Source of the DNA: Candidatus Aegiribacteria sp.
Lineage (GTDB): Bacteria > Fermentibacterota > Fermentibacteria > Fermentibacterales > JCC-6
Assembly: GCA_046498225.1 (NCBI GenBank)
Contig: JAWOBF010000019.1
Location: forward strand, 1 to 61,280
Length of the DNA: 61,280 nt
Direction of reading: 5' to 3'
A program made the translations under genes and the position numbers. Below the pieces are notes generated by a model, which was given only the letters and a program-made list of their open reading frames with translations, did no database searches and was not told where the DNA came from. Below are positions 1,504 through 48,470 of this stretch, one piece after another; within the stretch, counting starts at the first letter, position 1, and each line of letters begins with the position of its first letter.

Positions 1504-2157
1504 ATGAAGTATTTTCTTCTGTTGATACTTCCCGCTCTCGCTCTGGCCGGTGCCGACCATCTCGGTTTCGTCCATTCCTCTGGATCAGGTCACGGAGGAC
1601 CGACTGACGCCGTGGTCTTCGACCAGGGATACTCGTTCGCAGCTCTCGTAAACGGTTTTCAGCATATCCAGATGGCTGATGACTTCATTCTCGACGACGA
1701 CGTCAGCATCCAGAACATCAGGATGTGGATGATCTACACCGGTTCCAACCCAACCAGCTACGACCTGGCCATCGCCGAGGACAGCGGCGATTCCGATCCC
1801 AGTACTGCCACCACCATATGGTCGGAGAATGTGCCCTGCACACATGTCGACACCGGTGACGATCAGTGGGGATTCGACATCTGGGAAACCACTTTTGCCA
1901 TCTCCGAGACCAATGCATACCCCGAACTTACTGCTGGTGTCAGGTACTGGCTTATCTTCAACTTCACCGCCTCCGAGTACTGGCTCGTGCAGGACCCGGT
2001 ATGGGGAAGTTACGCATGGACCGGAGACGGTACGGACTGGTGGAGGTCTGACGACCCGACTACGTTCGACTATGCCGCCGATGCATTCTTCCAGCTCTAC
2101 GACACTTCCGTGGCTCTGGAGAGGTCCACCTGGGCCAACATCAAGACCGTATTCTAG
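1504..2157 (+). CDS. Secreted acidic protein with C-terminal TWxxIK tail
   Basis: Signal peptide MKYFLLLILPALALA; ADDF motif; ends VALERSTWANIKTVF; resembles 47661-48470. Confidence 0.85.
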   Translation: MKYFLLLILPALALAGADHLGFVHSSGSGHGGPTDAVVFDQGYSFAALVNGFQHIQMADDFILDDDVSIQNIRMWMIYTGSNPTSYDLAIAEDSGDSDPSTATTIWSENVPCTHVDTGDDQWGFDIWETTFAISETNAYPELTAGVRYWLIFNFTASEYWLVQDPVWGSYAWTGDGTDWWRSDDPTTFDYAADAFFQLYDTSVALERSTWANIKTVF

Positions 2158-2180
2158 AACTGCCGCTGCAGTATAGAAGC

Positions 2181-2219
2181 AACCGGGAAGGGCACATGTC
2201 CTTCCCGGTTCTTTCTTTT
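2181..2219 (+). terminator. Rho-independent terminator, between convergent genes
   Basis: AACCGGGAAGGGC-ACAT-GTCCTTCCCGGTT followed by CTTTCTTTT. Confidence 0.8.
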
Positions 2220-2243
2220 ACCTTCTGTTATGGAAAACCGGCG

Positions 2244-3785
2244 CTATTCCCACTCGATGGTGCCCGGAGGCTTGCTGGAAACATCGTAGACCACCCGGCT
2301 CACGCCGCTTACCCTGTTTACTATGGAGGACGATATCCTGGCCAGGTGCTCGGGGTCCATCCTGTACCAGTCGGCGGTCATGCCGTCGGTGGAGGTCACC
2401 GCCCTGAGAGCTATGACCCTGTCGTAGGTCCTCTCGTCGCCCATCACACCAACCGTCCGGACGGGAAGGAGCACGGCGAAGGCCTGCCATATCTCGTCGT
2501 ACAGCCCGTTATCCAGCAGGTAGTCTATGAATATCCTGTCCACCCTCCTCAGTATATCCAGGTCCAGGGGATTCACTTCCCCCAGTATCCTCACCGCCAG
2601 TCCCGGCCCCGGGAACGGATGCCTCGCCACCATTCGGGGCGGAAGGCCCAGCTGAATTCCCAGCTCTCTCACCTCGTCCTTGAACAGCTCCCTGAGGGGT
2701 TCCAGCAGCTTCAGGTCCATTCTGTCGGGAAGCCCTCCCACGTTGTGATGGCTTTTTATGGTGGCGGAGGGCCCGCGGAAGGAAACGCTCTCGATGACGT
2801 CCGGGTAGAGGGTGCCCTGTGCGAGGTGGGTAACGTTATCTATTTCGGAGGCGGCCTTCTCGAAGAGCTGAATGAACGTCCTGCCGATTATCTTCCTCTT
2901 CTTCTCCGGGTCCGTGACGCCCCTCAGGGCCGACAGGAATTCATCGGCGCCATGGATGACCTTCAGCGGCATTCCGAAATGGTCCCGGAAGGTCTCCACC
3001 ACCGATTCCATCTCGCCCATCCTCAGCAGGCCGTTGTCCACGAAGATGGGGGTGAACCTCTTCGGGACGGCCCTGTGCAGAAGCGCGGCCACCACGGATG
3101 AGTCCACTCCCCCCGACAGTCCCAGTATGACGTTCCCCCCGTCCTTCAGCTCCTCCCTTATCATCTCCGCGGATCGCCTGCTGAATTCCTCCATGTTCCA
3201 GTTGGGAGTGATTTCAGCGATATTCAGAACGAAATTCCTCAGAAGCTGTTCCCCGAACTCGGTGTGGTTGACCTCCGGGTGGAACTGGACTCCGTACCGT
3301 TTTCTTGACCTGTCGGCCATGGCGGCTATGGGAAGGGAATCCGTGCTCGCGGCAACGACGTACCTGTCCGGGACCCGGACCACCCTGTCCCCGTGGCTCA
3401 TCCATGCCTGAAGACCGGGGTCTACGGAGTGGAAGATATCCGTACCAGGTTCCGGATAGAGCCTGGCCGGGCCGTATTCCCTCTCGTGACCGCCTTCCAC
3501 ACCGCCGCTTTCATGAAGGGCCAGCAGCTGCATGCCGTAGCAGATGCCCAGCATTGGCAGGTCGAGGTCGAAAAGGCGGGGGTCCGGATGGGGGGAATCG
3601 CTGTCGTAGACGCTGGAAGGCCCGCCGGAGAGGATGACAGCGGAGGGTTTCATTTCCAGGACCCGGGGCAGGGGAGCGTCGCCGGGAATCAGTTCGCAGT
3701 ACACTCCCATTTCCCTTATCCTTCTTGCTATCAGCTGATTGTACTGGGAACCGAAATCAAGGACGGCTACTCCGTTCGGAACCAT
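2244..3785 (-). CDS. guaA: GMP synthase (glutamine-hydrolysing)
   Basis: LDFGSQY, GICYGMQ, QFHPEV, LSGGVDS, IKSHHNVGGLP, KPPGTIEWE. Confidence 0.98.
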   Translation of the reverse strand: MVPNGVAVLDFGSQYNQLIARRIREMGVYCELIPGDAPLPRVLEMKPSAVILSGGPSSVYDSDSPHPDPRLFDLDLPMLGICYGMQLLALHESGGVEGGHEREYGPARLYPEPGTDIFHSVDPGLQAWMSHGDRVVRVPDRYVVAASTDSLPIAAMADRSRKRYGVQFHPEVNHTEFGEQLLRNFVLNIAEITPNWNMEEFSRRSAEMIREELKDGGNVILGLSGGVDSSVVAALLHRAVPKRFTPIFVDNGLLRMGEMESVVETFRDHFGMPLKVIHGADEFLSALRGVTDPEKKRKIIGRTFIQLFEKAASEIDNVTHLAQGTLYPDVIESVSFRGPSATIKSHHNVGGLPDRMDLKLLEPLRELFKDEVRELGIQLGLPPRMVARHPFPGPGLAVRILGEVNPLDLDILRRVDRIFIDYLLDNGLYDEIWQAFAVLLPVRTVGVMGDERTYDRVIALRAVTSTDGMTADWYRMDPEHLARISSSIVNRVSGVSRVVYDVSSKPPGTIEWE

Positions 3786-3794
3786 CTAATCTCC

Positions 3795-5243
3795 TTAACA
3801 TCCATTCGGTGATCCGCCGTCCCCCCGGCTCAGGTCCGGAAGGTCCACCGGATATTCACCATCGAAGCAGGCGGTGCAGTAATCCCCGGGACTGTGCGCT
3901 GCCACGCAGCTGAGCATGCCCTCCTTCGAAAGGTAGCCCAGGCTGTCCACCCCGAGCTGGGCGGCTATTTCCTCCACCGAGAAGTTCCTCGCTATGAGAC
4001 TGGATGGTTCGGGAAAGTCTATGCCGAAGTAGCAGCCGTACTTGTGAGGGGGACAGCTGACCCGCATATGGACTTCCTCGGCCCCGGCCTCCCTCAGGGC
4101 CCTTATCCTGGCCCTGCTGGTGGTGCCCCTTACGATGCTGTCCTCCACCACGCAGAGCTTCCTGCCCTTTACGGCCTCCGGAATGGGCTGCAGCTTTCTC
4201 ATCACCATCGCCGCACGCCTGGCCGACGCCGGATCGATGAAAGTCCTGCCTATGTAATGGTTCCGGGTGAAACACATGTCAAAGGGTGCATTCAGCTCCC
4301 TGGCGAATCCCATGGCAGCGAACATGCCGCTGTCGGGTACCGGGGCTACTATGTCGCAGTCCACAGGATGCTCCCTCGCCAGCTGCCGTCCCATGGCCAG
4401 TCGCGTGGTGTAGACGCTGTCGCCGAAGATCCTGCTTCCGGGCCTGGCGAAATAGACGTGCTCGAAAATGCACTGGGCCAGCCCCCTTCTCTTCCTGAAG
4501 AGATTCCCCCTGTCCCTTATGATCTCCGATTCGGGCTGAAAACCTTCATGCGGAATGAAGAGAACCTCACCCGCCTGGATCTCCCGCAGATACTCCGCTC
4601 CGCAGACATCGAAGGCCAGTGTCTCGCTTGCCACTATCCAGCCTCCTTCCTCGAACCTGCCCAGGCTGAGGGGCCTGAACCCCAGAGGGTCGCGTACCGC
4701 GTACATTCCCTCGGGGCTCATGATGAGGAAACAGTAGGCCCCCTGAAGTCTTCTCAGGGCTATCTCCAGGGCATCCCTTATGTTGAAGCCTGTCTGCTCC
4801 AGGTTCCTGGACATGAGGTGAAGCACAACCTCCGTGTCTGTCCTGGTCAGGAATATGGCCCCCTGGCGCTGAAGTTCGTCCCGCAGGGATCCTGCATTGG
4901 TGAGGGTTCCGTTGTGGGCTATTCCTATCTGGAATCCGGCCATTCTCACCAGCAGGGGCTGAGCGTTCTCCACGTCCTCCCCCCCGTATGTACCGTAGCG
5001 GACGTGTCCTATCACCGAGGAGATGTCACCGCCGAAGAAATCGGGAGGTATGTCCGACATCGCCTCGCCTACGGTGCCCTTGCGCTTGTGCAGCCTCATG
5101 GACCCGTCGGTGCAGGTGAGGAGGCCGGCGGCCTCCTGGCCGCGATGCTGGAGAGCCAGAAGACCTTCGGCCACCAGGGACACCTGGTCGCCCGGAAAAC
5201 CGCTTATTCCGCACAGTCCGCAGTACTCCCCGGCCCTATTCAA
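3795..5243 (-). CDS. purF: Amidophosphoribosyltransferase
   Basis: Short propeptide then CG, LQHRGQE, GHVRY, HNG, CIFEHVYFARP, VEDSIVRGTT, CYFGIDF, YCTACF (Fe-S-type cysteines). Confidence 0.95.
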   Translation of the reverse strand: MNRAGEYCGLCGISGFPGDQVSLVAEGLLALQHRGQEAAGLLTCTDGSMRLHKRKGTVGEAMSDIPPDFFGGDISSVIGHVRYGTYGGEDVENAQPLLVRMAGFQIGIAHNGTLTNAGSLRDELQRQGAIFLTRTDTEVVLHLMSRNLEQTGFNIRDALEIALRRLQGAYCFLIMSPEGMYAVRDPLGFRPLSLGRFEEGGWIVASETLAFDVCGAEYLREIQAGEVLFIPHEGFQPESEIIRDRGNLFRKRRGLAQCIFEHVYFARPGSRIFGDSVYTTRLAMGRQLAREHPVDCDIVAPVPDSGMFAAMGFARELNAPFDMCFTRNHYIGRTFIDPASARRAAMVMRKLQPIPEAVKGRKLCVVEDSIVRGTTSRARIRALREAGAEEVHMRVSCPPHKYGCYFGIDFPEPSSLIARNFSVEEIAAQLGVDSLGYLSKEGMLSCVAAHSPGDYCTACFDGEYPVDLPDLSRGDGGSPNGC

Positions 5244-6852: not shown

Positions 6853-6936
6853 GGAAAACAGCCTTTCAGAATAGATAAAAAACACTTCCCAGCATAAGCA
6901 ATTATTGTACACGGGAATCGTTTTTACAAGACTGCC

Positions 6937-7749
6937 CTACTCGAAGTAAAGATCGGGCCGCCTGTCGCGCAGAACGTGATTGCGGGGCGTTATGCGCTTG
7001 TCGCGCGCCCTGTTGATGTCCAGTTCCGCTACGAAAACTTCTTCGCCCTCCTCCTCGGCGGTATGAACTACCTCCCCTTCCGGAGCGGCTATCCGGCTTC
7101 TGCCGGTGAAACGGATATTCCCGAAGGGCCTGCGCTCGGTGCCCGTCCTGTTGGCCGTTACCGAAAAGACCATGTTCTCCGTGCATCTGGTCACCATGGC
7201 CCTCTGGCAGTGGTCCAGCACCAGGTTTGCCGGATGGCAGAGAATATCGGCCCCCAACAGTGCCAGAGTCCTGGCCACCTCGGGGAATATCCAGTCGAAA
7301 CAGACCATCATTCCCAGCCTGGCACCCGGAATGGGATGGACCGACAGGGGAAGGTCCCCCTCATCGAAGTAGAGCTTCTCCCGGTCGAACAGATGAAGCT
7401 TCCTGTACCTGGCGACTATTCCCGAAGGACCCAGCAGAAGAGAGCTGTTGTAGCACCTGTCGCCGGCCCTCTCCGCAAAACCGGTGACCATATGCATGCC
7501 GCCCCCGCGGCACAGTTCCACCAGCCGAGCAACCACCGGGGATTCCTCCGGCTCCCGGGCCATAGCCAGAAGCTCCTCCCTGTCTGTGAACCCGTAGCCG
7601 GTGAACGGCAGTTCGGGGAGCACTATCAGATCCGCGCTTACCCCGGTAAGGGCCCGGACGACTTTTTCCAGGTTACCCGAAATGTCCCCGAACACCGGCG
7701 AGAACTGCAGATATCCCGCTCTGAAACCGCCTGCCGCTTCAACTTCCAA
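6937..7749 (-). CDS. Carbon-nitrogen hydrolase (nitrilase superfamily)
   Basis: E-K-C triad: VLPEL, YRKLHL, VCFDW. Confidence 0.92.
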   Translation of the reverse strand: MEVEAAGGFRAGYLQFSPVFGDISGNLEKVVRALTGVSADLIVLPELPFTGYGFTDREELLAMAREPEESPVVARLVELCRGGGMHMVTGFAERAGDRCYNSSLLLGPSGIVARYRKLHLFDREKLYFDEGDLPLSVHPIPGARLGMMVCFDWIFPEVARTLALLGADILCHPANLVLDHCQRAMVTRCTENMVFSVTANRTGTERRPFGNIRFTGRSRIAAPEGEVVHTAEEEGEEVFVAELDINRARDKRITPRNHVLRDRRPDLYFE

Positions 7750-7888
7750 TCTGGCTTCCGTTCATTCGAGTTATTACAGAACAACGAACCATGGAGTAAT
7801 AAAACCTACATCCTTTGCGCTTTTTCATTCTGTGTGACATAGTTTCATTGTATACCCAAAATTCCCGCCTCAGGAAAGGTAACCCATT

Positions 7889-10582
7889 ATGACGAGAAGA
7901 TCGGTCCTTCCCATACTGCTGCTGATGCTGGTATCCGTCGCGCTCTCCGATGAACCCGGAGTGACGGTGCTGGATAACGGTCTGACTGTTATCACACAGG
8001 AACTCCATTACGCGCCGGTGGTTGCCTCCGTTATCTCCTACCGGGTTGGCTCGCGCAACGAGTGTGGAGATATCCTCGGAATGAGCCACTTCTGTGAGCA
8101 CCTCATGTTCAAGGGGACCCCGGACATGCCGAAATCGAGGTTCTGGCAGATAGTGCAGCGTGACGGCGGGATGGCCAACGCTTTCACCAGCAACGATGTA
8201 ACATGTTACTTCCTGCTTCTGCCCGCGGCCAGGCTGGAGGACGCCCTTCTCATTGAGAGCGACCGGATGGTCAACTGCACCATAGACTCGGCGGAAGTCA
8301 TATCCGAGAGGAACGTTGTCCATGAAGAGCGAAGGATGTCAAGCGCCGACAGCCCGGACGGAGCCCTGTGGGAAGCGCTGGGACAGTTGGCTTTCACGGA
8401 GCATCCCTACCGGAATCCGGTCATAGGGTACGACGAGAACATACTGGGCTACGACCGGGAAAAAGCCAGATGCTACTACGAAACCTATTACTGCCCTTCC
8501 AACGCAGTGCTTACTTTCGTGGGTGATTTCCAGACGGAAGAACTCCTCGAGCGGGTAGGGGAGTATTTCGGGGACATCCCGTCAGGGGAGGTCCCGGAGG
8601 AATCGATACCTTCGGAACCGCAGCAGCTCGAGGCAAGGATGATAGAGATTGAGCACGCCTCCAACCTTCCCCGCTTCGTGATGGCCTTTCATACCGTCGC
8701 GGGGGACCACCCGGACAATCCCGCCCTCAGAATGATATCCTCCTACCTTTCGGGGGGACGGTCCAGCAGGCTGGAACAGGTCCTGGTGGAGCCCGGCCTC
8801 GTTCACAGCGCCGGCGCCCGGAACGATGGCGGTATCGATCCCGGCCTTTTCAATATTTACGTGACCATGAACCCGCCGGAGGAGAGCAGCGTCACCATGG
8901 AGGAGGTCCGGGAGATAATATGGAACGAACTGGAGGACATGGCGATCAACGGTATACCGTCCGATGAGCTGGACCGGCACAGGAACAGGTACAGAGCCCG
9001 GGAGATCCTGGGAGAAGCCAGCCCCATCGGCCTTGGCATGAGCTACAGCCTTTCGGCCACCATGTTCGGCGACCCGCTCCATTCCAGGAAGCAGCTGGAA
9101 CTGATAGAGCTGCTGACTCCGGAGGATATCAGACGGGTGGCGACCGAGTATTTCCGCAGGGACGCGGTTAGCGTCGCGGTGCTGAGACCGTCGGGGGAAA
9201 CGGGAATGCATGGGGGCGGGTCCAGGGAGGAACTGCCCACGGATATAACGGAACCCTCTTCCATCAGCTACGAGGGGCTGGAGATACCGGAAGATTTCCT
9301 GACCCCGCCGGAAAGCTCCATCTTCGAAGATGTTGTGGAGTTCCAGCTGCCCAACGGTCTGGTCCTGCTTATGTCGGAGGACCACACCTTCCCCGTTGTT
9401 TCGGTCAGCTTCGCAGTCCCCATGGGAGCGCTCAGGCATTCTTCCCGGCTGAACGGCCTCGCCGGGGTGACGGCCGAAACGATGCTCAGGGGAACCGAGG
9501 AACTCGACTACGGCAGGTTCCACAGGCGGCTGGAGACGGAGGGGTCCTACCTCAGGTTCGGGGCGGGCCAGGAGCATTCCACCGGAACGATCCTTCTTCT
9601 GTCGGAGGACCTTGAGATAGCTTTTCAGACCGTGTCGGACCTTCTGCTGAGGCCTGCCTTCAGAGAGGCCGATATGCGAACGGTGATGAACGAGCAGTAC
9701 GCCAACCTGGAAGCGGCGGCCGAGCGGTCATTCTCCATCGCCGCCGACAGTCTGGCCTCCATGACCGCAAGGGCCCCGGAGGACTACAGGAGCGCTTCCC
9801 GGGCCACACTGGACAGGATAACGCTGGACGAGGTAATGGACTTCTACGGCAGCTGCTGCCGTCCCGAAGGCTCTGTCATAGCTGTAGTGGGAGACATCGA
9901 CCCCCAGGCAGTCCGCGAGCTGGCGCTGGAGCATTTCGGCTCCTGGGAGAATCCGGCCGAACCCCTTCCGGAAGCGCACATTCCTCAGTTCTCCTCCGCT
10001 CCGGGTGACACTGTGGTCACGTTCATGCCGGGCAGGGTACAGGCCAGCGTGCTGGTGGGCAGGAACGCCCCGGGCACGGAACTTCCGGAGTATCCCGCTT
10101 TCACCGTGATGAACACCATACTGGGCAGGGGAATAGGCTCCCGGCTGGGACACAGCGTCCGTGACGAGCAGGGTCTGGCATACGGAGTCGGAAGCTGGTC
10201 GACTCATTTCGACAGTACTGGAGTCTTCTCAGCCTACCTTTCGACACTGAGCGACTACGTTCCGCAGGCGACCTCCTCGGTCATCGCCGAGATGGAGAGG
10301 ATAGCCTCGGAGAACGTGGAGGAAATCGAGCTCCGCCTGGCAAAGGCCAACGCTGTGGGAAGGAATGCCTTCTCGGGAATGAGCTACGGAGGACAGTCCG
10401 GCAGGCTGGTGAGCCTTCACCTGAACGACCGGCCGCTGGACTGGGACCTTCAGCACCTGCAGCGTGTCCTCGCTCTCAGGCCGGATGACATAAGGAATGC
10501 GGCGGCGGAATACCTGATCCCCGGGAAATGGTTCGTGTCCATCGCCGGAGGAATAACAATGGAGGACCTGCTATCGGAATAG
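7889..10582 (+). CDS. Exported M16 (pitrilysin/insulinase) zinc peptidase
   Basis: Signal peptide; HFCEH inverted zincin motif, NAFTS, downstream EE; duplicated second half (LPNGL...RDEQGLAY). Confidence 0.92.
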   Translation: MTRRSVLPILLLMLVSVALSDEPGVTVLDNGLTVITQELHYAPVVASVISYRVGSRNECGDILGMSHFCEHLMFKGTPDMPKSRFWQIVQRDGGMANAFTSNDVTCYFLLLPAARLEDALLIESDRMVNCTIDSAEVISERNVVHEERRMSSADSPDGALWEALGQLAFTEHPYRNPVIGYDENILGYDREKARCYYETYYCPSNAVLTFVGDFQTEELLERVGEYFGDIPSGEVPEESIPSEPQQLEARMIEIEHASNLPRFVMAFHTVAGDHPDNPALRMISSYLSGGRSSRLEQVLVEPGLVHSAGARNDGGIDPGLFNIYVTMNPPEESSVTMEEVREIIWNELEDMAINGIPSDELDRHRNRYRAREILGEASPIGLGMSYSLSATMFGDPLHSRKQLELIELLTPEDIRRVATEYFRRDAVSVAVLRPSGETGMHGGGSREELPTDITEPSSISYEGLEIPEDFLTPPESSIFEDVVEFQLPNGLVLLMSEDHTFPVVSVSFAVPMGALRHSSRLNGLAGVTAETMLRGTEELDYGRFHRRLETEGSYLRFGAGQEHSTGTILLLSEDLEIAFQTVSDLLLRPAFREADMRTVMNEQYANLEAAAERSFSIAADSLASMTARAPEDYRSASRATLDRITLDEVMDFYGSCCRPEGSVIAVVGDIDPQAVRELALEHFGSWENPAEPLPEAHIPQFSSAPGDTVVTFMPGRVQASVLVGRNAPGTELPEYPAFTVMNTILGRGIGSRLGHSVRDEQGLAYGVGSWSTHFDSTGVFSAYLSTLSDYVPQATSSVIAEMERIASENVEEIELRLAKANAVGRNAFSGMSYGGQSGRLVSLHLNDRPLDWDLQHLQRVLALRPDDIRNAAAEYLIPGKWFVSIAGGITMEDLLSE

Positions 10583-10620
10583 ACCGTGACAAGGTATCTC
10601 CCGTGGCAGATACCGCAGGG

Positions 10621-13251
10621 ATGAACCCGGGCGGCTCCATCAGGAAGCCTCGCAATGTAGTGGTGCGAAGGCTGAAGAACGGTCTTACCGTGATCCTTCA
10701 GAGGCTGTCCTATTCACCGGTGGCGGCGGTCAACATCGCGTTCGGCGCCGGCTCCCTGTGGGAAACGGAGAACACCAGGGGATACAGCCACCTGTGCGAG
10801 CACATGATGTTCAAGGGTTCAGGAAACTTCGGGGCTGGTAAATACTGGGAGACGGTCCAGCTCAACGGCGGAGTGGCCAACGCCTATACCTCCAGGGACA
10901 TCACCGTTTACTACTCCGTCCTTCCAAAGGCCGGGCTGAGGGACATCCTGGAGATGGAATCGGACAGGATGTTCAACTGCACCATGAAAGATGAGGACGT
11001 CAATTCTGAGACCGCGGTGATACTCGAGGAGGAGCTCCTCACGCAGAGGGACGACCCCGAAGGTTCGCTGGACTCGCTTCTGTACAAGACCGCTTTCCCG
11101 ACACATCCCTACGGCAGGCCGATAACAGGTACAGCCGAAGACATACGCCGGTTCACTCCAGAAGGGCTCAGGAAATTCTACCATGACTTCTACACCCCTT
11201 CGAACGCGGTGCTGTCAGTGGTGGGGGATATAGACACGGATGATACCGGTAAGTTAATCGAAGACCTCTTCGGAGCCGGGGCCGGGAGTGCAGCGGACAG
11301 GCCGGGAGTGGACCCGGAGCCGTCCCAGAAGGAACAGCGCAGGGTCTCGACCGAACATCCCTCACAGCTTCCCAGGATTAGCATCGGGTTTCGAGCGCCC
11401 CCTGAAGATCATCCGGATTCCGTGGCCCTTTCTCTGATTTCGGTCTACCTTTCCTCAGGCAGGTCCAGCAGGTTCGAGGAACTGCTGGTCAAACCCTCGC
11501 TGGTCCTGGACGTTTCATCCTATGCCAACTCTCACGTTCAGCACGGTCTCTTCGTGATAGGGGCCACCCTTCCCGAACGGGGGGCTCCGGACCGGGTCGA
11601 GGACATCATCTTCCGCGAACTCAGCAGGCTGTCGGAAAATGGAATGGATGAGAACACTCTGAATATTCTCAAGAGGAGAAGGAACGCCTGGGGGATGATA
11701 TCGGACGCGGACCAGCAGGGCAGGTCGAGAAGGCTAACAACCGGCTACGCCAAGTTCCATGACCCGTTCCATCACTGGCACAGAATGGACCGTCTCCAGT
11801 CCGTGAGCCGTGAGGACATCATTCGGGCGGCTTCCGCATACCTCACTCCGGCCAATTCAACCGTTGTGCTCCTGAGACCTTCCTCGGGACCGAAAGCCGT
11901 TCGCACCCCGAGGGCCGGAAAAAACCGTGAGCCCTCGCCGGATCTTTCCCCGCCGGCAGCACAGGAACCTTCGGAGCTGGAGATACCGGACAGGTTCCTC
12001 GAGGTCCCCGAAAGGTCGGTGGCCGACGGCTGCCGGGAAGTAAAACTGGGAAACGGCCTTCGACTGATCATGAGGCAGGATGCTTCCTTTCCCATAGTAT
12101 CCCTGGGCTTCTCCTGCCCCATGGGTTCCTCCATGGAGCCGGCGGGGCTCACCGGGCTCGCTCAGATAACTGCGGAGACCATGGCGCATGGAACTCCGGA
12201 TGAGGACCGCATAGAGTTCAACTCCAGACTGGAGAACCTGGGCACGTCCCTGGATTTCTCATCCACCGATGAGTTCTCAGGCGGAATGATAACCTCGCTG
12301 GCGCAGGACGCCGACCGGGTACTCCAGGTCATTTCCGACATGCTGAGAACACCCGCATTGCGCCCGGAAGACCTGGAATCGGTAAGATCAGAAGCGATAT
12401 CCAGCCTCGAAGAATGGCTGGGCACCCCCATCGGCGCAGCTATGGACTCATTCTCACGGCAGTCCACAGACCCGCCGGAAATGTCTTCCGTCCCTACGAG
12501 AGAATCTCTGCTGTCCATTACCGGAGATGATCTTGTGGATTTCCACGGGAGATGCTGCAGGCCGGAAGGTACGATTTTAGTGGCGGTGGGAAATTTTCAG
12601 GAAGATGAGCTGCTGAATGCCGTAGAGAGGCATTTTTCCAGCTGGAAGAACCCGAATACCACTTTCTCCCCTCCGCCTCCCGCCCGGAATTCGATCAGCT
12701 CCTCGGAGATAACCGTAAAGCTGGATGGCAGGGAGCAGGTTGCTCTGCTGACAGGTTCTCCCGCACCTTCAAGGCTGCATGAGGACAGGTACGCCATATC
12801 TATCCTCAGCCGGATACTGGGAGAGGGGATTGGTTCCAGGTTGGGCAGGAAAATCAGGGAAGCGGGGCTGTCATACCATGCGGGCAGCATGTACATACCG
12901 CTTTCTGCGCGAGGAAGGATAGTGGCCCTGGTGCTGACCAGCCCCCGGTCCCTGCCGCAGGCGTACGCAAGGCTCACAGAGGAGTTCAGTTCCCTGTGGA
13001 AGGAAAAGGTGAGCCTGAACGAGCTTCGACTGGAGCAGACATCCTACATAGGCATGCAGGAACTGAGCATGATGAAATACAGCTCGATGGCAAGGATGCT
13101 GCTGACCTACGCGTCAACAGGACTGCCGCTGGACCATGACCGTACCGTAATGACCAGGGTTTGCGCCCTTGCCAGGGAGGACATTCAGAGGGCCGCCGTC
13201 GAATGGCTGGGCAGGGGGATAACCTACACCACCATTGCCGGCGGAGTGTGA
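10621..13251 (+). CDS. M16 zinc peptidase, tandem paralog without signal peptide
   Basis: HLCEH, NAYTS, EEE; two-half architecture; start uncertain (GTG 10603 or ATG 10621). Confidence 0.9.
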   Translation: MNPGGSIRKPRNVVVRRLKNGLTVILQRLSYSPVAAVNIAFGAGSLWETENTRGYSHLCEHMMFKGSGNFGAGKYWETVQLNGGVANAYTSRDITVYYSVLPKAGLRDILEMESDRMFNCTMKDEDVNSETAVILEEELLTQRDDPEGSLDSLLYKTAFPTHPYGRPITGTAEDIRRFTPEGLRKFYHDFYTPSNAVLSVVGDIDTDDTGKLIEDLFGAGAGSAADRPGVDPEPSQKEQRRVSTEHPSQLPRISIGFRAPPEDHPDSVALSLISVYLSSGRSSRFEELLVKPSLVLDVSSYANSHVQHGLFVIGATLPERGAPDRVEDIIFRELSRLSENGMDENTLNILKRRRNAWGMISDADQQGRSRRLTTGYAKFHDPFHHWHRMDRLQSVSREDIIRAASAYLTPANSTVVLLRPSSGPKAVRTPRAGKNREPSPDLSPPAAQEPSELEIPDRFLEVPERSVADGCREVKLGNGLRLIMRQDASFPIVSLGFSCPMGSSMEPAGLTGLAQITAETMAHGTPDEDRIEFNSRLENLGTSLDFSSTDEFSGGMITSLAQDADRVLQVISDMLRTPALRPEDLESVRSEAISSLEEWLGTPIGAAMDSFSRQSTDPPEMSSVPTRESLLSITGDDLVDFHGRCCRPEGTILVAVGNFQEDELLNAVERHFSSWKNPNTTFSPPPPARNSISSSEITVKLDGREQVALLTGSPAPSRLHEDRYAISILSRILGEGIGSRLGRKIREAGLSYHAGSMYIPLSARGRIVALVLTSPRSLPQAYARLTEEFSSLWKEKVSLNELRLEQTSYIGMQELSMMKYSSMARMLLTYASTGLPLDHDRTVMTRVCALAREDIQRAAVEWLGRGITYTTIAGGV

Positions 13252-13262
13252 GGGCTCGAGGA

Positions 13263-14925: not shown

Positions 14926-14933
14926 TCAGTCTC

Positions 14934-29637: not shown

Positions 29638-29716
29638 AAGAAAGGTATGGTTTTTTCGGTACCGCTTGAATATGATGAAGGCAGCAGGATCAATCCGGGT
29701 TGAAGGGACACGTTAT

Positions 29717-30310
29717 ATGACAAAGCTTGCGATACTGACAATTGCATTGTTTACAGTGGCGGGAGCTGACGAGGTATGGACCTTCCCCTTCGATGAACTG
29801 GGAGCGGAGTGGACGGTGGAGGGTTACTGGACCATCACCGGCACGGGAGGGTATACCGGATCTCCCGGCTCGGTGAAGGAGTTGAGATGGACTTACTCCA
29901 CCATGGCCAGCGGCCAGATGACGCTGCCCGAAGGGATCGATTCGATAACCGTGGAGATGAACAGCGGATACGATTATTACGGGTACGCCATGGACGGCGG
30001 GTCGCAGGTCTCCATGGAAGGCCTCCTTTCCAGGAATACCGATGAAACATACACTCTGGTGGATGTCGCCGACGGTGTGGTAACCTGGGACTACGCCTCA
30101 TACAGCGGCTCGGACACCACTTCCATATCCCAGGTAGTGCCCATCGACCCCGGCGACGTCATTGAACTCGAGTTCACCGCGGGAAGGAACTCCTACGGAT
30201 ACATCTACTACGTGTCCCTCTTCTGGAGCCTGTGGGACATGACAATAACGGGTCACGGCAGCACCGGGCTCTCACGGAGGACATGGGCCGGAATCAAGAG
30301 TTCCATCTGA
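29717..30310 (+). CDS. Secreted acidic protein with C-terminal TWxxIK tail
   Basis: Signal peptide MTKLAILTIALFTVAGA; ends GLSRRTWAGIKSSI. Confidence 0.8.
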   Translation: MTKLAILTIALFTVAGADEVWTFPFDELGAEWTVEGYWTITGTGGYTGSPGSVKELRWTYSTMASGQMTLPEGIDSITVEMNSGYDYYGYAMDGGSQVSMEGLLSRNTDETYTLVDVADGVVTWDYASYSGSDTTSISQVVPIDPGDVIELEFTAGRNSYGYIYYVSLFWSLWDMTITGHGSTGLSRRTWAGIKSSI

Positions 30311-33278: not shown

Positions 33279-33292
33279 AAGGCGGTGAAGAA

Positions 33293-37268: not shown

Positions 37269-37275
37269 TAACATC

Positions 37276-38319: not shown

Positions 38320-38320
38320 C

Positions 38321-39358: not shown

Positions 39359-39377
39359 AAGAATATCCTCCAGACCT

Positions 39378-42056: not shown

Positions 42057-42149
42057 GCTTTCACCTTTCACGGGGTCCGTTGTATCAGGTCGGTTTTACC
42101 GGAACTTATTCCGGGTATGCCTCCATGTCCATGGTTCGCATATATGGTC

Positions 42150-44834
42150 TCACTGCTTCAGGTCCTTCCGCACGTGTACCTCTCCGCTGGACCTGTCGTG
42201 GGAAACCCTGTATCCCCTGGTTTCGAAGAGATGGATCATCCTGGTGTTGTCCACCGTTGTCTGAGCGACTATCCTGGACAGACCCCAGTCCCGCGCAATG
42301 TTCTCGCAGTACTCCGTTACTATCCCGCCCAGTCCCCTGTTCTGCCATTTGTCATCTACCAGAATCGCGTACTCGACGGACTCCAGGTCCGGGTCGGCAA
42401 CCAGCCTTCCGATGGCGTGGATCGATCTTGCGCCTTCCATCTCCGTCTCCGCCACAATGGCTATCTCACGGTCGTAATCTATGTAACAGTATCTGGCCGC
42501 CGCCTCGTGATTGGCCCAGTTGTAGAAGAAGCCGAACCTGGAATAGATGGACTCCCGCGAACAGCTGCCCAGCATCTCCATCCACATCGGTTCGTCCTCC
42601 GGTTTGATGGGCCGCAGCAGCACCTCCGTCCCGTCCCTCAGGGTCCGACCGGTAACGTACTCCGCAGGGTAGGGCCTCAGTGCCAGATGGTCGTACGAAC
42701 GGTCCAGTCCCACTCCGGGAGTTACGGAAACCCTTGCGTCCAGGGCCAGTATCTCACTGGAACAGCAAAGGAGGGGATTGATGTCGATCTCTACTATCTC
42801 CGGATTGTCACAGACCAGATATGAGAACCTCATCATAACCTTCTTAAGGAGTTCCACGTCCACCGGGGGCCTGCCCCTGAAACCGTCCAGCAGAGGGAAC
42901 ACCTTCAGAGATCTCAGCATCCTGTCGGCCAGATGCTCGTTGAGAGGAGGGAAGCCCAGTGCGGTATCACCCCATATCTCCGTGGCTACGCCTCCCCTGC
43001 CGACCATTATGACCGAACCGAATAGAGGGTCCTTCCTTGCCCCAAGTATCATCTCGGTCCCCTGGCGGACCATGGCCATCCTCTGCACAGAAATTCCCGA
43101 TATCTCGGCCACCGGCGCCCTGTCCGCCACGCTGGACATGATGCCCCTCCAGGCATCCTCCAGAGCCTCCCGGCAGTCTATGTTCACCGCCACTCCCCCG
43201 ACCTCGGTCTTGTGGGTGATGTCCGGGGAATGGACCTTAAGCACCACGGGGTAACCTATGTCAGAAGCGATGGAAACCGCCTCCTCCGGCGATCGGGCCA
43301 GTATGGGCATGGTGACGGGTATCCCGTACAGCTGAAGCAGTCTCTTGGATTCGATCTCGGAGAGAATGGAATCCTCCTTCGGAATGATGGAGAGGAATTC
43401 CTGCCTGATTCCCTGCTGGTCTCCCGGGAAGTCGGCCATGATATCCCTGGGCGTCTCGTAGAGATCCTGGAGATTGTCGGCGTAGTCCACCAGTGTCATG
43501 AAGGCCCGCACGGCCTGCTCGGGAGTGCTGTAGGTGGCCACGCCTGCATCCACCAGCATGCTCATCGAACCTCTGACGCTCTCCCCCCCCAGCCAGGCTG
43601 CGAGTACCGGTTTCCTTGTGCTTTCGACAAGCCCGCCTATCCTGGCGGCGACCCTGTCCGGTCTGGTCATGGCCTGAGGGGTCAGTATCACCAGCAGGGC
43701 ATCTACTCCGCCGTCATCCAGCAGGATCCTTGCCGCTTTCAGGTACCTCTTGGAATTAGCGTCCCCCAGAACATCCACCGGGTTCCTTCCGGACCAGAAG
43801 GGAGGAAGGAACGAATCAAGGGCTTCGACACTCTCAGGCGAGAGCTCGGCCAGTTCTCCACCCAGTTCTACCAGAGTGTCCACCGCCATCACCCCCGGTC
43901 CCCCGGCGTTGGTCACTATTCCCAGCCTGGGTCCGCGGGGATACCTGTTTCTTCCGATGAGTTCCACGCAGTCGAATATCTCCCCTATGTTCAGGACCCT
44001 TGCCATTCCGGCCCTTCTGAAGGCAGCGTCGTATACAGCGTCTTCGGATGCCATTGCGCCGGTGTGGGACGCGGCCACCGCGGCGGACTGGGGAAAACGG
44101 CCCGCTTTGTAGACGATGATCGGCTTGGTCCTGGCGAATGCTCGGGTTGCGGTCATGAACTTTCTCGCGTCTCTGATCGATTCTATGTAGAGGATTATGG
44201 CGTCGGTCTTCTCGTCCTCACCGAAGTAGTCTATCAGGTCTGCGAAATCAATATCGATGGCATTGCCGATGGACACGAAGTACGAGAAACCGATTTTCTT
44301 GTCCCTGGCCCAGTCCAGCACGGAGGTGCACAGCGCTCCCGACTGGGAAATGAACGCCACGCTTCCCTGAGCAGGGATGCCGCTGGCGAAGCTGGCGTTG
44401 AGTTTGATGCCGGGGACTATGATACCCAGGCAGTTCGGTCCCAGCACTCTCATGTCCGGATATTTCTCCAGCTGCTCCCGAAGCCCCCGGGAGAGCTCCT
44501 CTCCCCGGGGTCCCGATTCCTCGAAGCCGGCTGACATCACTATGACCCCATTCACTCCAAGCTCTCCGCATTCCGCCAGGATGTCAGCCACTTTCTCAGC
44601 CGGTGTGCATATGATGACCAGGTCCGGGGTCCTGGGCACAGAGTCCAGACCGGGATAGCAGGGCACCCCCATGATGGCCTCACTTACAGGGTTCACCGGG
44701 TACACGACACCACGGAAGGCGCCTCCGATGAGATTGGTCAGGACTTTCCCTCCCACACTGTTGGGATTGATGGTTACCCCTGCCAGTGCTATCCGCTTAG
44801 GGTTAAGCAGCTTGTCGAGTCCGTGAACGCTCAT
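42150..44834 (-). CDS. ADP-forming acyl-CoA synthetase-like plus GNAT fusion (Pat/PatZ-type lysine acetyltransferase)
   Basis: LGPNCLG, SQSGA, ASHTGA, TNAGG, NPVD, HKTEVGGV, DINPL; GNAT LRPIKPED, WQNRGLG; GGAGG RBS before ATG 44834. Confidence 0.92.
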   Translation of the reverse strand: MSVHGLDKLLNPKRIALAGVTINPNSVGGKVLTNLIGGAFRGVVYPVNPVSEAIMGVPCYPGLDSVPRTPDLVIICTPAEKVADILAECGELGVNGVIVMSAGFEESGPRGEELSRGLREQLEKYPDMRVLGPNCLGIIVPGIKLNASFASGIPAQGSVAFISQSGALCTSVLDWARDKKIGFSYFVSIGNAIDIDFADLIDYFGEDEKTDAIILYIESIRDARKFMTATRAFARTKPIIVYKAGRFPQSAAVAASHTGAMASEDAVYDAAFRRAGMARVLNIGEIFDCVELIGRNRYPRGPRLGIVTNAGGPGVMAVDTLVELGGELAELSPESVEALDSFLPPFWSGRNPVDVLGDANSKRYLKAARILLDDGGVDALLVILTPQAMTRPDRVAARIGGLVESTRKPVLAAWLGGESVRGSMSMLVDAGVATYSTPEQAVRAFMTLVDYADNLQDLYETPRDIMADFPGDQQGIRQEFLSIIPKEDSILSEIESKRLLQLYGIPVTMPILARSPEEAVSIASDIGYPVVLKVHSPDITHKTEVGGVAVNIDCREALEDAWRGIMSSVADRAPVAEISGISVQRMAMVRQGTEMILGARKDPLFGSVIMVGRGGVATEIWGDTALGFPPLNEHLADRMLRSLKVFPLLDGFRGRPPVDVELLKKVMMRFSYLVCDNPEIVEIDINPLLCCSSEILALDARVSVTPGVGLDRSYDHLALRPYPAEYVTGRTLRDGTEVLLRPIKPEDEPMWMEMLGSCSRESIYSRFGFFYNWANHEAAARYCYIDYDREIAIVAETEMEGARSIHAIGRLVADPDLESVEYAILVDDKWQNRGLGGIVTEYCENIARDWGLSRIVAQTTVDNTRMIHLFETRGYRVSHDRSSGEVHVRKDLKQ

Positions 44835-44922
44835 GTAAGACCTCCTGGAGAGATAGTTCCGGACCATCAGAACCTTCATGGGGAGATAAGGAAAACATTC
44901 CTACCCTCTGAGATACCTGCCG

Positions 44923-45894
44923 TCAGTGCAGTGTCTTTATGCGAAGGGATTTGCGCATTTCGTTCAGAAGCCTGGACACTTCCGCCTTCTCTCTCAGCTC
45001 CTCGTAGGTAAGGAGTCTCAGCGTCCTGTTGGCCATACCCAGCCTTCTCGCCAGAAGGCTTCCAAGGCCCAGGCAGAGGCTTACGGCCATCAGACTGTTC
45101 CGCTCCAGGAGTTCACGGAGAGTATCCCTGGAGAACATAAGTATCTCAGCGCTCCCCAAGGCTTTAGCCGTATCTACCCTTGGCTTTCCGTCAATGAAGG
45201 ATTTCTCTCCCACAGCGTCGTTCGCTCCGAAGCTGCCAAGGACAAAGCCGTCGGCGCTCTCGTCCACCACCGCAACTTCGCCCTTGCGGATTATAAAGAG
45301 GTCGGTGGTCCTTTCACCCTGGCGGTACAGCACCTGGTCCTTTCTGGCGTAGATCCAGTGACATATCTCGGAAAGGACAGGATCGTCCGCCGACAGCAGG
45401 GGTTTCATGTTGCGGGCCCTGATGTCCGCTCTCAGTTTCTGTAGTTCGCGCCTTCCGCTCAGATCCTGATCACCTGAGATGAGTACCCTCAGCGAATCAG
45501 CCTTTCTCAGCCTCTCTACCATGAACCGCTCCAGGAAAAGAAGGAATTTCGTGCCGGGGACGGGCTGATTCCTCAGGAATTCCACAAAGGGTTCACGCGA
45601 CAGTTTAAGTAGCTTTCCCTGCACGTTGGACCTAACCGTTGCCGAGCGGGGTTCGCCACCGAGGAATGCCATCTCGCCGAAAACGTCGCCCTCGTCCAGC
45701 GAATCGATTATCCTCCCGCCGCCCTTGTCATCTACAACCACCAGCTGACCCTCTTCGACAACGAAGAGATCGGTCCCGGTATCGCCCTGTTTAACCACCT
45801 TTTCCGATTCACTCACTTCAACTTCTTCAAAGAGGTCCCTTAAACCACTCTCGGAGAGAATGTCCTCGGTATCGAAAAGAAATTCCTTTTTCAT
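44923..45894 (-). CDS. Tandem cyclic-nucleotide-binding domain protein (no HTH)
   Basis: FGEMAFLGGEPRSATV and VGEKSFIDGKPRVDTA cassettes. Confidence 0.88.
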   Translation of the reverse strand: MKKEFLFDTEDILSESGLRDLFEEVEVSESEKVVKQGDTGTDLFVVEEGQLVVVDDKGGGRIIDSLDEGDVFGEMAFLGGEPRSATVRSNVQGKLLKLSREPFVEFLRNQPVPGTKFLLFLERFMVERLRKADSLRVLISGDQDLSGRRELQKLRADIRARNMKPLLSADDPVLSEICHWIYARKDQVLYRQGERTTDLFIIRKGEVAVVDESADGFVLGSFGANDAVGEKSFIDGKPRVDTAKALGSAEILMFSRDTLRELLERNSLMAVSLCLGLGSLLARRLGMANRTLRLLTYEELREKAEVSRLLNEMRKSLRIKTLH

Positions 45895-45989
45895 GGATAC
45901 CTCTCAACCGTACTTCCAAACCAACTGCCGGTCGAAATGACCGCAATGCGGCCCTCACCGCCGGCAGGACAACTCACCCAACATTAAGG

Positions 45990-46019
45990 ACAATACCTTG
46001 GAAAACCTGTCCTTGTCAA
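45990..46019 (-). promoter_or_regulatory. Sigma70-type promoter overlapped by AAGGACA/TGTCCTT dyad
   Basis: Minus strand TTGACA-N18-TATTGT. Confidence 0.5.
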
Positions 46020-46079
46020 ACTTCGACAATGCTTCAGGGGGTTGTTCAGGAATTCTTCCGGATGACCTGGAAAGGCGGA

Positions 46080-47471
46080 TCAGCCGTCGGCCCAGGTATC
46101 CGATGTCCAGCGGAACCTGCTGCGAAGTGTTCCCCTTCCCAGGAGCTCCAGGGCGGCGTACTCTCCCATCTCGAGGGAGTGGTCCATGTTATTGTAACGG
46201 AACAGACCCTGACGGCCGCAGGTCACGGCATTCTCCAGCCGGTCCATGGAATCCAGAACCGGTTCCAGGTTCCGGGAGAAATCAAGGGAGTAGACCGGGT
46301 ATGCATGGGCGTATCCGGTGGAGGTCGAATCCACGACATCCTCCCTCGAAAAGAGTCCCAGGGCTTCACCGCCCAGAATAGCCGATTCGGCGAGGTCCGT
46401 CCCGTCGGACCAGACGTCATCCCCGGTTTCGCAGGTATACTCGAAGACGAGCTGTGTACCCTCCAGGTCGGATTCGGGATCGAAATTCCCGGGAAAGGAA
46501 ATCCTGTTGAACCCGTACTTGCCCTCGGGTATGTATATCCAGTGGTCACGGGCGGGGATCGTGCGGTTCAATCTGAGAACTGCGAACATTATGGCCCTGA
46601 ACCGAAGGCAGGAGGCGAATGACTTGACCCGCTCCGGCAGTAGATCTCCAAGTAGCAGGGCGTAATCCGTAACGGGTATGGAACTGAGAATGGCGTCCAC
46701 AATGAGCTCGCCGCCGTTAACGGATATTCTGTAGCCGCCGCCATCTGCCGCTTTGATCGAGTCGGGCCGGGAGGAGTACTCGATGCTTCCCCCGCGGCGC
46801 TTAATCCGCCGAGCGAGAGCATCTGATATCCGTCCAATGCCTCCCGGCGGATAATGGAAACAGCTCACGAGGCTCCTGGAGGAATTCCTTCCCGGCAGTA
46901 TGGTGGCCTTTGCCAGGTCGGTGAGTTTCGGGACGGTGATACGCTGGCTGGCCCACTCGGCCGAGAGTTCCTCCGGTGGACATCCCCAGAGTTTCTCGGT
47001 GTATGGCCCGAAGTAGAGGTCGTACAGCTTCTTACCGAACCTTCCGGTCACCCAGCCCTTGAAATCCAGGGCTTTTCCGCTCCCGGAGAGACCCTTTACC
47101 CTTTCCATAAAATAGCTGAAGACCATTCCCGCGGACCGGTTAAGCGGCATTTTGCCGAGCACGTCAGGAAATGAGAGTGGGTACCGGAAATAACGGTCCA
47201 GCAGCCTGATCCTGCTGAGCCTCTCCAGCTCCATCAGTCCGTCCGGAAGGATGGAATCAACGAATTCCAGTATGGAGGGATTCTCCGTGTGGAACCTGTG
47301 TGGTCCGAGGTCGAAGTGGAAACCGTCCCGGCTCACGGTCCGGGCCAGTCCTCCGGCCATGCTGTCCTTCTCTATCACCACGACTTCCACGCCGGCATCG
47401 GAGAGAACGTCCGCTCCCCTGAGTCCTGCCAGTCCCGCTCCCAGCACGGCTGCCCTGCGCGGCTTATCCAT
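46080..47471 (-). CDS. FAD-dependent oxidoreductase (PPO/UDP-galactopyranose-mutase-like family)
   Basis: GAGLAG, GGLART, DLGPHRF, YTEKLWG, FHYPPGG, AYPVY, GRQGLFRYNNMDHS. Confidence 0.88.
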   Translation of the reverse strand: MDKPRRAAVLGAGLAGLRGADVLSDAGVEVVVIEKDSMAGGLARTVSRDGFHFDLGPHRFHTENPSILEFVDSILPDGLMELERLSRIRLLDRYFRYPLSFPDVLGKMPLNRSAGMVFSYFMERVKGLSGSGKALDFKGWVTGRFGKKLYDLYFGPYTEKLWGCPPEELSAEWASQRITVPKLTDLAKATILPGRNSSRSLVSCFHYPPGGIGRISDALARRIKRRGGSIEYSSRPDSIKAADGGGYRISVNGGELIVDAILSSIPVTDYALLLGDLLPERVKSFASCLRFRAIMFAVLRLNRTIPARDHWIYIPEGKYGFNRISFPGNFDPESDLEGTQLVFEYTCETGDDVWSDGTDLAESAILGGEALGLFSREDVVDSTSTGYAHAYPVYSLDFSRNLEPVLDSMDRLENAVTCGRQGLFRYNNMDHSLEMGEYAALELLGRGTLRSRFRWTSDTWADG

Positions 47472-47591
47472 GTTTCCGATCAGATTCCTCCCGGTAACTG
47501 CCAGCAGTGTTCTTCACTAAATAATTCCCGGCGTCAGCCGGCCAGGCGTAAACGTAAATATACTGACTGAAGGGGCGCCGGTAACCCTGAA

Positions 47592-47650
47592 CCGGGGGTT
47601 GTCATGAAGGGGACAGGGAGGTGGCCCCTGTCCCCTTTTCATGAACCCGG
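47592..47650. terminator. Long imperfect hairpin downstream of 47661-48470
   Basis: TCATGAAGGGGACAGGG-N7-CCCTGTCCCCTTTTCATGA with flanking CCGGG/CCCGG; no clear U-tract on the minus strand. Confidence 0.55.
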
Positions 47651-47660
47651 CGGCAGTGTC

Positions 47661-48470
47661 TCAGAAGAGGGTCTTGACAGCTCCCCAGGTCTCGTTCTCG
47701 AGAGAGGTGATGGTACCCTGCAGAGTGAAAGGAAGTCCTTTCAGCTCACCGGACTGGTTGTCTGCGACGGGGCTCCAGACTTGAGTGTAGTACTGCACCG
47801 CGTTACCGGTCTCCAGCTGGCCGTTTATGGTTATGGGAGGGTTCCACGGACCGGATTCACCCACACCATCCTGCTGCCAGCACAACCAGTAGGTTCCCTC
47901 GCTGAGAACTATCGGTGTGCCGAACTCGCAGGTCTGCACCATGAGGGGGCGGTTGGTTACCGATCCCGACCCGGCCTCGTTGACCCTGTAGCAGTTCATG
48001 AACTCGGTGGTTGTCATGACATTGGTGAAAAGGTCACCGTAGAGCAGGTTCCCGAACTCCGGTACGTCGTCGTATATCTCGATATAGGCACCGATTATGG
48101 ATGATGGAGGACCTTCATCGGTCTGATAGCCGATGAGAGTAATGACATCGATCTCCCAGGTAGTTCCCGATGGGATCTCGAAGTCGTCCGCAAGCCTTAT
48201 GTCGGCACCCCACTGGCAGCCGAATCCGTTGGTGGTCTCCAGAGGATCGAGAATGGATTCGTCTGCTCCTCCGACACCGGTCCCGTAGCTGGTTATCACG
48301 GGCCCGTTGTCCCAGAGAACCGCCTGAGGACCGTCCCAGACGGGTCCCTCCCAAGGAGTCGGGGATTCATCCGTGGACGCTGGAACGATCCCATCGTCAG
48401 ATGTTTCACCGGCCATAAGAGGCAGGGCACAGAGCACCAGTACCTGAACACATAAGAACAGCTTATGCAT
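47661..48470 (-). CDS. Secreted acidic protein with C-terminal TWxxVK tail
   Basis: Signal peptide; VLWDNG, LADDF, GTYWL; ends SLENETWGAVKTLF. Confidence 0.85.
   Translation of the reverse strand: MHKLFLCVQVLVLCALPLMAGETSDDGIVPASTDESPTPWEGPVWDGPQAVLWDNGPVITSYGTGVGGADESILDPLETTNGFGCQWGADIRLADDFEIPSGTTWEIDVITLIGYQTDEGPPSSIIGAYIEIYDDVPEFGNLLYGDLFTNVMTTTEFMNCYRVNEAGSGSVTNRPLMVQTCEFGTPIVLSEGTYWLCWQQDGVGESGPWNPPITINGQLETGNAVQYYTQVWSPVADNQSGELKGLPFTLQGTITSLENETWGAVKTLF

Follow-up and report, generated by a model that had tools for sequence, protein, structure and literature searches.

The window analysed here, a 61,280-nucleotide stretch of Candidatus Aegiribacteria sp. (Fermentibacterota), encodes three proteins with signal-peptide-like starts that close with the same short tail, L-x3-[ST]-W-[GA]-x-[IV]-K-x-x-[FI], directly at the stop codon. 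This tail is modular, strictly C-terminal and restricted to proteins with signal-peptide-like starts; about 25 proteins bear it in this genome, and its occurrence is real and far above chance. It is covered by no Pfam or NCBIfam model and is uncatalogued. We propose that it is a sorting or surface-retention tag read by a conserved receptor, a reading to which we assign a probability of about 0.6. The window is contig C110 of a genome assembled into 151 contigs (2.6 Mb, 59% GC, completeness 95.7%), whose affiliation with Candidatus Aegiribacteria/Fermentibacterota is also indicated by named homologues.

The tail was first remarked upon in an earlier note made from the letters of this stretch, and all three open reading frames (ORFs) named there are present and end as described, with the addition, left out at that time, that protein C lies on the minus strand. 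They are given below together with a neighbouring type IX secretion system (T9SS) cargo protein, which ends in a classical C-terminal domain (CTD); bit scores are those against a hidden Markov model (HMM) of the tail.

1504..2157, plus strand: tail protein A, 217 aa; signal-peptide-like start, predicted beta-sandwich body, tail; ends ...VALERSTWANIKTVF
2116..2154, plus strand: tail of A, LERSTWANIKTVF, residues 205-217; 28.7 bits
29717..30310, plus strand: tail protein B, 197 aa counted from the ATG at 29717; ends ...GLSRRTWAGIKSSI
30269..30307, plus strand: tail of B, LSRRTWAGIKSSI; 23.7 bits
47661..48470, minus strand: tail protein C, 269 aa; signal-peptide-like start, low-confidence linker, predicted beta-sandwich 50-254, tail; ends ...TSLENETWGAVKTLF
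47664..47702, minus strand: tail of C, LENETWGAVKTLF, residues 257-269; 23.5 bits
48721..50403, plus strand: T9SS cargo for contrast, without the tail; MXAN_6640-like HExxH metalloprotease region and a FlgD_ig/type A CTD (about 50140-50379)

None of proteins A, B and C has a significant Pfam or NCBIfam match. The longest ORF of protein B begins at 29666, and the ATG at 29717 yields the signal-peptide-like start. Protein B had been thought unrelated to the others apart from its tail, and BLASTP agrees (A against B, E=3.0; no alignment of B with C at E<=10). Its sole BLASTP relative is a tail protein truncated by the end of contig C66 (E 1e-5), and a search of Atlas gave leads only, with every score below 0.9. 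In protein A the tail is retained in 10 of 10 homologues.

Across the genome, the core [ST]W[AG]x[IVL]K was found 23 times in 26,744 six-frame ORFs of at least 50 aa, and 21 of these occurrences are placed 3-7 residues before the stop. Composition alone predicts about 5 occurrences in total and about 0.3 at the terminus, and 20 shuffles gave a mean of 3.65 in total (maximum 7) and 0.55 at the terminus (maximum 2), which puts the two internal occurrences at chance level. The genome-wide HMM count proposed in the earlier note returned 21 matches at 20-33 bits, all ending 0-4 residues from the stop, as well as three weaker variants, also terminal, that scored 14.2, 9.8 and 7.5 bits, the remainder being noise below about 10 bits; one further tail sits on an ORF truncated by a contig end. 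A profile search brought the total to 25 credible matches, 23 of them aligned, a count that is partly circular, the independent counts being those of the regular expression and the first HMM. Throughout the alignments the Lys is invariant and the Trp, Gly/Ala and Ile/Val are nearly so, which favours recognition by a protein receptor over bulk physical chemistry. The weaker variants include two with Phe replacing the near-invariant Trp (...TTFGSIKALFR and ...TTFGSIKALLR), found at the following positions.

Contig C21 (L003:6768-7376): Phe-for-Trp variant on a CBM96/DNRLRE protein
Contig C46:585-638: Phe-for-Trp variant

The carriers are alike in their signal-peptide-like starts and in composition, extending to the genome what the earlier note had described for the three window proteins. 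All 20 complete tail proteins have a hydrophobic N-terminal window of at least 2.2, compared with 23% of 1,857 crudely called genes, by a heuristic rather than SignalP and with start codons chosen in favour of hydrophobic starts. They are acidic (median isoelectric point 4.05 versus 5.5 for called genes) and rich in aromatic residues (F+W+Y 15.7% versus 7.7%; W 4.1% versus 1.1%), and range in length from 183 to 314 aa in this genome.

The bodies to which the tail is joined differ. After removal of the last 18 residues, 21 carriers fall into 12 BLASTP clusters (E<1e-3), a figure that overstates their diversity because profile comparison reveals remote homology between A and C, both BLASTP singletons (hhalign probability 97%, E 8e-11). 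Named domains, each a different one, were recognised in three carriers, namely CBM96 (equivalent to NCBIfam DNRLRE), Lamin Tail Domain (LTD) and DOMON, and several unnamed families bear the tail as well. It is thus found on distinct Pfam families rather than on a single homologous family, and is much better conserved than the bodies, in keeping with the modularity suggested from the window alone.

Exchange of the tail for recognised sorting signals is seen among the relatives of protein C. This protein has 49 database homologues, of which 34 terminate in the tail. Three others (P0042, P0045 and P0048) end instead in a T9SS type A domain that passes the TIGR04183 cut-off, and the source of one such homologue names it a Bacteroidales T9SS sorting-domain protein. 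On homologue P0034 the place of the tail is taken by an IPTL-CTERM match that attains the cut-off, and ends of like build, judged by eye (an IPTL motif, a transmembrane (TM) helix and an Arg cluster), are seen on P0037-40, P0043 and P0046. The body of protein C is therefore a "choice-of-anchor" domain in the sense of one body domain with different C-terminal sorting signals among homologues; no curated choice-of-anchor model in NCBIfam matches it. By analogy with the T9SS and IPTL-CTERM signals that occupy the same place on homologues, the tail most likely directs surface export.

All 70 genomes of the window's GTDB phylum (14 genera) encode the tail, with 2-34 matches each at E<=1e-3. It was also found in 9 of 9 genomes of one small phylum and in 117 of 121 genomes sampled from the GTDB phylum under which the Fibrobacteraceae, Latescibacteria and Krumholzibacteriota records fall, these three sets being our phylogenetic profiling sample of candidate phyla of the Fibrobacterota-Chlorobiota-Bacteroidota (FCB) group. 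In a species-representative genome collection, the DNA pattern [ST]-W-G-x-I-K-x-L-Y-R-stop has at least 132 loci against a chance expectation of about 13 matches (our own estimate, assuming equal base use). Among the 80 titled matches listed, 39 are labelled by lineage (23 Eisenbacteria, 7 Krumholzibacteri-, 4 Latescibacter-, 2 Gemmatimonadota, and 1 each Zixibacteria, Fibrobacteraceae and Effluviviaceae) and 41 are unlabelled; no label of Bacteroidota or of a major phylum outside the FCB group is among the 39. These NCBI-style labels overstate the number of independent phyla, because the Fibrobacteraceae, Latescibacteria and Krumholzibacteriota records share one GTDB phylum. The earlier note's remark on similar tails in FCB-related candidate phyla is thus borne out, phylum-wide in the window's own lineage and by the xLYR variant in several others.

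Among the matches listed, the xLYR form comprises at least 142 different tail ends, with Pro-Val-Glu often standing before them, the [YF]-R ending being required by the pattern. Here too the carriers appear to be exported, as 64 of 66 complete tail ORFs from other phyla have hydrophobic N-termini, and they are again of several kinds: 12 of 65 scanned ORFs belong to a Pfam family (6 Beta_helix/NosD, that is, right-handed beta-helix; 2 LTD; and 1 each CHRD, DUF7450, Cleaved_Adhesin and a sub-threshold CBM96). Genomes of other phyla yielded 72, 62, 30, 19 and 43 tail matches, and a further set 44, 42, 11, 38 and 2. Within the genus of the window, the genome G018 (1.9 Mb, 98% complete) has 2 tail matches, where the other genomes have 10-34; as a case of natural reduction it could, through a comparison of gene content, help to find the machinery.

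Structure models place the tail outside the carrier fold. The AlphaFold2 model of protein C (47 sequences; mean predicted local distance difference test score, pLDDT, 85.4) has a confident beta-sandwich at residues 50-254, with a final strand at 248-254, a linker at 255-259 and a helix at 260-268, and a mean pLDDT of 48 over residues 261-269. Protein A (11 sequences; mean pLDDT 70.7) is likewise modelled as a beta-sandwich, at lower confidence than C, with a helix at 209-216 and pLDDT below 50 over residues 208-217. In both models, then, the tail is predicted to be a loose helix behind a linker rather than a part of the body. Foldseek against the PDB returned for the body of protein C weak jelly-roll, carbohydrate-binding module (CBM) or phage-fibre matches only (TM-score <=0.34).

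The tail consists of a short linker with a conserved Leu (Pro-Val-Glu in other phyla) and then a stretch of some ten residues that runs to the stop, [ST]-W-[GA]-x-[IV]-K-x-x-[FY](-R). It is best explained as a tag added to Sec-exported, mostly small, acidic and Trp-rich domains of a binding type. We suggest that the carrier would first be exported by Sec and fold, after which the flexible tail would be bound sequence-specifically by a conserved envelope receptor that delivers the carrier to the cell surface or retains it there. The tail would thereby fill the role held by T9SS CTDs or exosortase-type anchors on homologous proteins. A surface destination, receptor binding and a link with T9SS are what we infer beyond the distribution itself.

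Type A CTDs (TIGR04183/PF18962) are cut by PorU. Like T9SS CTDs generally, the tail stands at the extreme C-terminus of Sec-exported proteins, has no TM segment and is found on many unrelated cargo proteins in FCB-group bacteria; the two share genomes and replace one another on protein C homologues. They differ in that the type A CTD is a folded immunoglobulin (Ig)-like domain with motifs B, D and E and an HMM of about 60-75 positions, whereas the tail has some 10-15 residues and is modelled as a loose helix. Por_Secre_tail, FlgD_ig and TIGR04183 gave no match on the three window proteins (E<=1) or on 17 tail proteins (E<=0.5). PMC12618676 describes T9SS signals as folded domains, with PorV as the reader of type A and cognate PorP/SprF shuttles as those of type B, and treats the reading of different signals by paralogous shuttles as an established principle. 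So-called short CTDs of Prevotella retain motifs B, D and E, with alignment positions to about 60 (PMC11969387). No published description of the tail was found in the open full-text literature, subscription-only papers and supplements being outside that search, and searches on T9SS yielded folded CTD types only.

A second comparison is with PEP-CTERM, IPTL-CTERM (TIGR04174), MYXO-CTERM and LPXTG signals, which are likewise short, genome-wide and modular C-terminal tags on exported proteins; IPTL-CTERM indeed stands on protein C homologues where this genome has the tail. Moreover, DNRLRE, LTD, CHRD and beta-helix domains commonly bear exosortase-type anchors. Exosortase- and sortase-type signals, however, are built of a motif, a TM helix and a basic cluster for recognition by a membrane transpeptidase, whereas the tail has no hydrophobic span and just 3-7 residues after its motif (3-4 after the invariant Lys). 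TIGR04174 and PF18203 found no match on the three window proteins (Pfam and NCBIfam) or on the 17 tail proteins (NCBIfam). The beta-signal of outer-membrane proteins, recognised by BamA/BamD, resembles the Fermentibacterota tails in that these end in an aromatic residue, usually Phe, on Sec-exported proteins. The carriers, in contrast, are modelled as soluble beta-sandwiches and not barrels, and a helix is predicted for the tail. Its widespread form closes with Tyr-Arg, and the tail lacks alternating hydrophobic residues, with Lys and Ser/Thr at the would-be hydrophobic positions.

If a receptor reads the tail, the type IX system is one place to look for it. This genome encodes SprA above the cut-off, three PorU-like C25 peptidases and three PorV/PorQ-like barrels, a full-looking type IX system, together with 70 type A CTD matches, most of them in frames of 400-1100 aa. 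The neighbour at 48721-50403 is one of them (FlgD_ig 34.7 bits, cut-off 27; TIGR04183 26.6 bits, cut-off 23), and the tail is thus used alongside the FlgD/T9SS-like domain, as the earlier note had it. From the full-looking system and the 70 matches it follows that the tail coexists with classical T9SS cargo and does not replace the cargo signal. Three PorU-like genes were also found in 5 of 5 other genomes of the phylum that were checked, and G018, with its 2 tails, likewise has three.

Two of the PorU-like C25 peptidase genes lie in tandem on contig C48 (8297-16670; about 399 bits each to NF033707), with a Sir2-family gene between them and a TPR gene after. The third adjoins PorV (contigs C81/C87). 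The other two PorV/PorQ-like barrels are encoded at C105:22794-23780 and C108:4778-5749.

The leading candidate class for the receptor, though less likely than not, would be outer-membrane proteins with a link to type IX secretion, for example a barrel of the PorV/PorQ family. Co-folding with a candidate barrel, which the earlier note had recommended, set PorV (residues 22-334) with protein C (44-269) above its control, with a median score of 0.41 (runs 0.20, 0.41 and 0.58) against 0.00 for the best control, contact agreement of at least 82% and partner pLDDT of at least 85; the tool's grade was "weak support". These predictions used our own alignments, and the score is for the whole mature protein C, with contacts not itemised. 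In calibration, 116 of 157 solved complexes and 2 of 215 mismatched pairs attained the mark; those that did so at 0.60 or below were just 18 of the solved complexes but both of the passing mismatches. It is doubtful that the tail forms a third, minimal class of type IX-linked signal (or a wholly new secretion or anchoring signal of the FCB group) read by a PorV/PorQ-family or other outer-membrane receptor, in which some ten residues would suffice to bring folded proteins to the surface.

Several observations weigh against a receptor-read tag, and in particular against one read by the type IX system. Folded Ig-like architecture of the CTD is called essential in PMC11285876; the tail corresponds to none of the known T9SS motifs, and known CTDs are all 5-10 times as long. 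SprA is above the cut-off in 10 of 10 other tail-bearing genomes and matched in 121 of 121 genomes of the largest of the three samples (120 above the cut-off), a co-occurrence that carries no information because the 4 sampled genomes without tail matches have SprA too. The PorV co-fold is weak by the tool's own calibration, and, since solved PorV-containing complexes exist, the model may be recalling them. No recurrent neighbour of the tail genes emerged from Pfam annotation of 103 proteins within 6 kb either side of 15 loci, nor do tail genes lie nearer to T9SS-CTD genes than at random (3, 4 and 5 of 25 within 0.5, 1.5 and 3 kb; P 0.12-0.29). A sortase-like protease beside tail genes was considered and rejected: a second C25 peptidase lies downstream of tail arrays in the genomes G070 and G071 only, and the synteny of these loci reduces them to a single observation. 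This peptidase resembles secreted gingipain-type cargo, with Propeptide_C25 and a FlgD_ig CTD (G071 copy scanned), and has no close orthologue in the window's genome (<=150 bits), whose three PorU-like genes are nearer to canonical PorU than it is.

The arrays themselves, in the Eisenbacteria-like genomes G071 (L152:6221-16555) and G070 (L153:6099-16592), consist of 3-5 tail genes for proteins of 180-235 aa. In G071 the array is followed by a multihaem cytochrome-like gene and then by the gingipain-like C25 peptidase, the G070 copy of which is truncated where the contig stops. Among the array members, one has the tail ...SSWSNIKAMYR, in which Ser replaces Gly.

A tag read by a receptor has to be set against several rival explanations. 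The tail might anchor itself as an interfacial helix, with Trp, Ile and the aromatic residue facing the lipid and Lys/Arg snorkelling, and so bind a membrane leaflet or lipopolysaccharide without machinery, much as C-terminal amphipathic anchors are known from PBP5 and MinD. The free helix predicted by AlphaFold2 in two proteins, the presence of W, I/V, aromatic and basic residues, and the lack of a machinery gene near the tail genes at 15 loci are all consistent with this. The amphipathic character supposed in the earlier note is, however, not clear-cut, since the helical hydrophobic moment of the tail is just moderate (0.32-0.47) and its mean hydrophobicity low (0.02-0.29). The helix has a length of some 9 residues. 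The near-invariance of T/S-W-G-x-I-K across phyla is also tighter than a physicochemical anchor would need, and the route to the surface would be left unexplained; we consider self-anchoring unlikely.

Covalent attachment or modification is quite improbable. Here the invariant Lys or the Ser/Thr-Trp pair would serve for cross-linking, to peptidoglycan for instance, or for glycosylation through a GT-C enzyme, which would make the tail a sequon. Braun's lipoprotein, whose C-terminal ...YRK is linked to peptidoglycan, offers a precedent; Lys is the only fully invariant residue of the tail and many tails end in ...YR, although this Lys is not the C-terminal residue. Some neighbouring genes would fit as well, a YkuD gene lying 2.4 kb from one tail gene and 3 of 8 PMT_2 (GT-C glycosyltransferase) genes within 7 kb of tail genes, a proximity that is marginal and post hoc (binomial estimate, P about 0.05). 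As a partner, the GT-C glycosyltransferase was rejected: the PMT_2-TPR gene directly upstream of the tail pair on contig C26 was found, with that query, in 2 of 70 genomes of the phylum, against 70 of 70 for the tail. The PMT_2 genes near tail genes are as follows.

Contig C21:2342-2809: PMT_2 gene
Contig C26:7143-7541: PMT_2 gene
Contig C107:7378-7761: PMT_2 gene

Simple shared ancestry, in which the tail would be the conserved last element of one divergent beta-sandwich superfamily, is largely refuted and very improbable: although A and C are remote homologues despite being unrelated by BLASTP, most carriers here are similar in size, and the many bodies without a family assignment leave room for hidden kinship among those, distinct Pfam families bear the tail (CBM96/DNRLRE, LTD, DOMON, right-handed beta-helix, CHRD and Cleaved_Adhesin), homologues of C swap it for a T9SS CTD or IPTL-CTERM, and it is conserved far beyond the bodies and detached from the fold in the models. 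We give as little credence to recognition by a PDZ-type or tail-specific periplasmic protease, as a tag for quality control, activation or degradation, for while Fermentibacterota tails end in [ST]-x-hydrophobic-COOH like class I PDZ ligands and like the DegS-activating C-terminal YxF of outer-membrane proteins, and a PDZ-domain protein is encoded about 3.5 kb from one tail gene, the widespread ...LYR ending does not fit, the conserved TWGxIK core lies upstream of the last three residues, and a degron would not be expected to replace T9SS or IPTL-CTERM anchors or to mark up to 72 proteins per genome.

A receptor-read sorting tag would matter for annotation as well as for envelope biology. Annotators and cell biologists identify the bacterial surface proteome by its C-terminal sorting signals, and, as no curated model names this tail, its carriers (about 25 here and 19-72 elsewhere) are filed as unrelated "hypothetical proteins". 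A simple HMM recovers it cleanly and could enter annotation pipelines. If the receptor exists, it would represent new envelope biology common to Fermentibacterota, Eisenbacteria, Krumholzibacteriota, Latescibacterota, Fibrobacterota-related and Gemmatimonadota-labelled lineages. Were the tail a minimal type IX-linked class, it would overturn the view that a folded Ig-like CTD is needed and would mark out, with as many as about 70 proteins in one genome, the surface proteome of several phyla that are uncultured. As a means of directing surface display, a tag of ten residues would have practical uses too.

Two further observations were made on contigs that carry tail genes. On contig C26 (L004:8296-9837), a 514-aa exported protein with a Cys/Ala/Gly-rich end (...AGCACACAGGGR) overlaps the start of a radical SAM/SPASM gene (9809-11158), and the two could be a peptide- or protein-maturation pair. 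On contig C21, an RmlD (dTDP-4-dehydrorhamnose reductase) domain extends over two adjacent ORFs (L003:695-1084 and 1091-1561; profile positions 1-130 and 135-283), which could reflect a frameshift, a sequencing error or a pseudogene.

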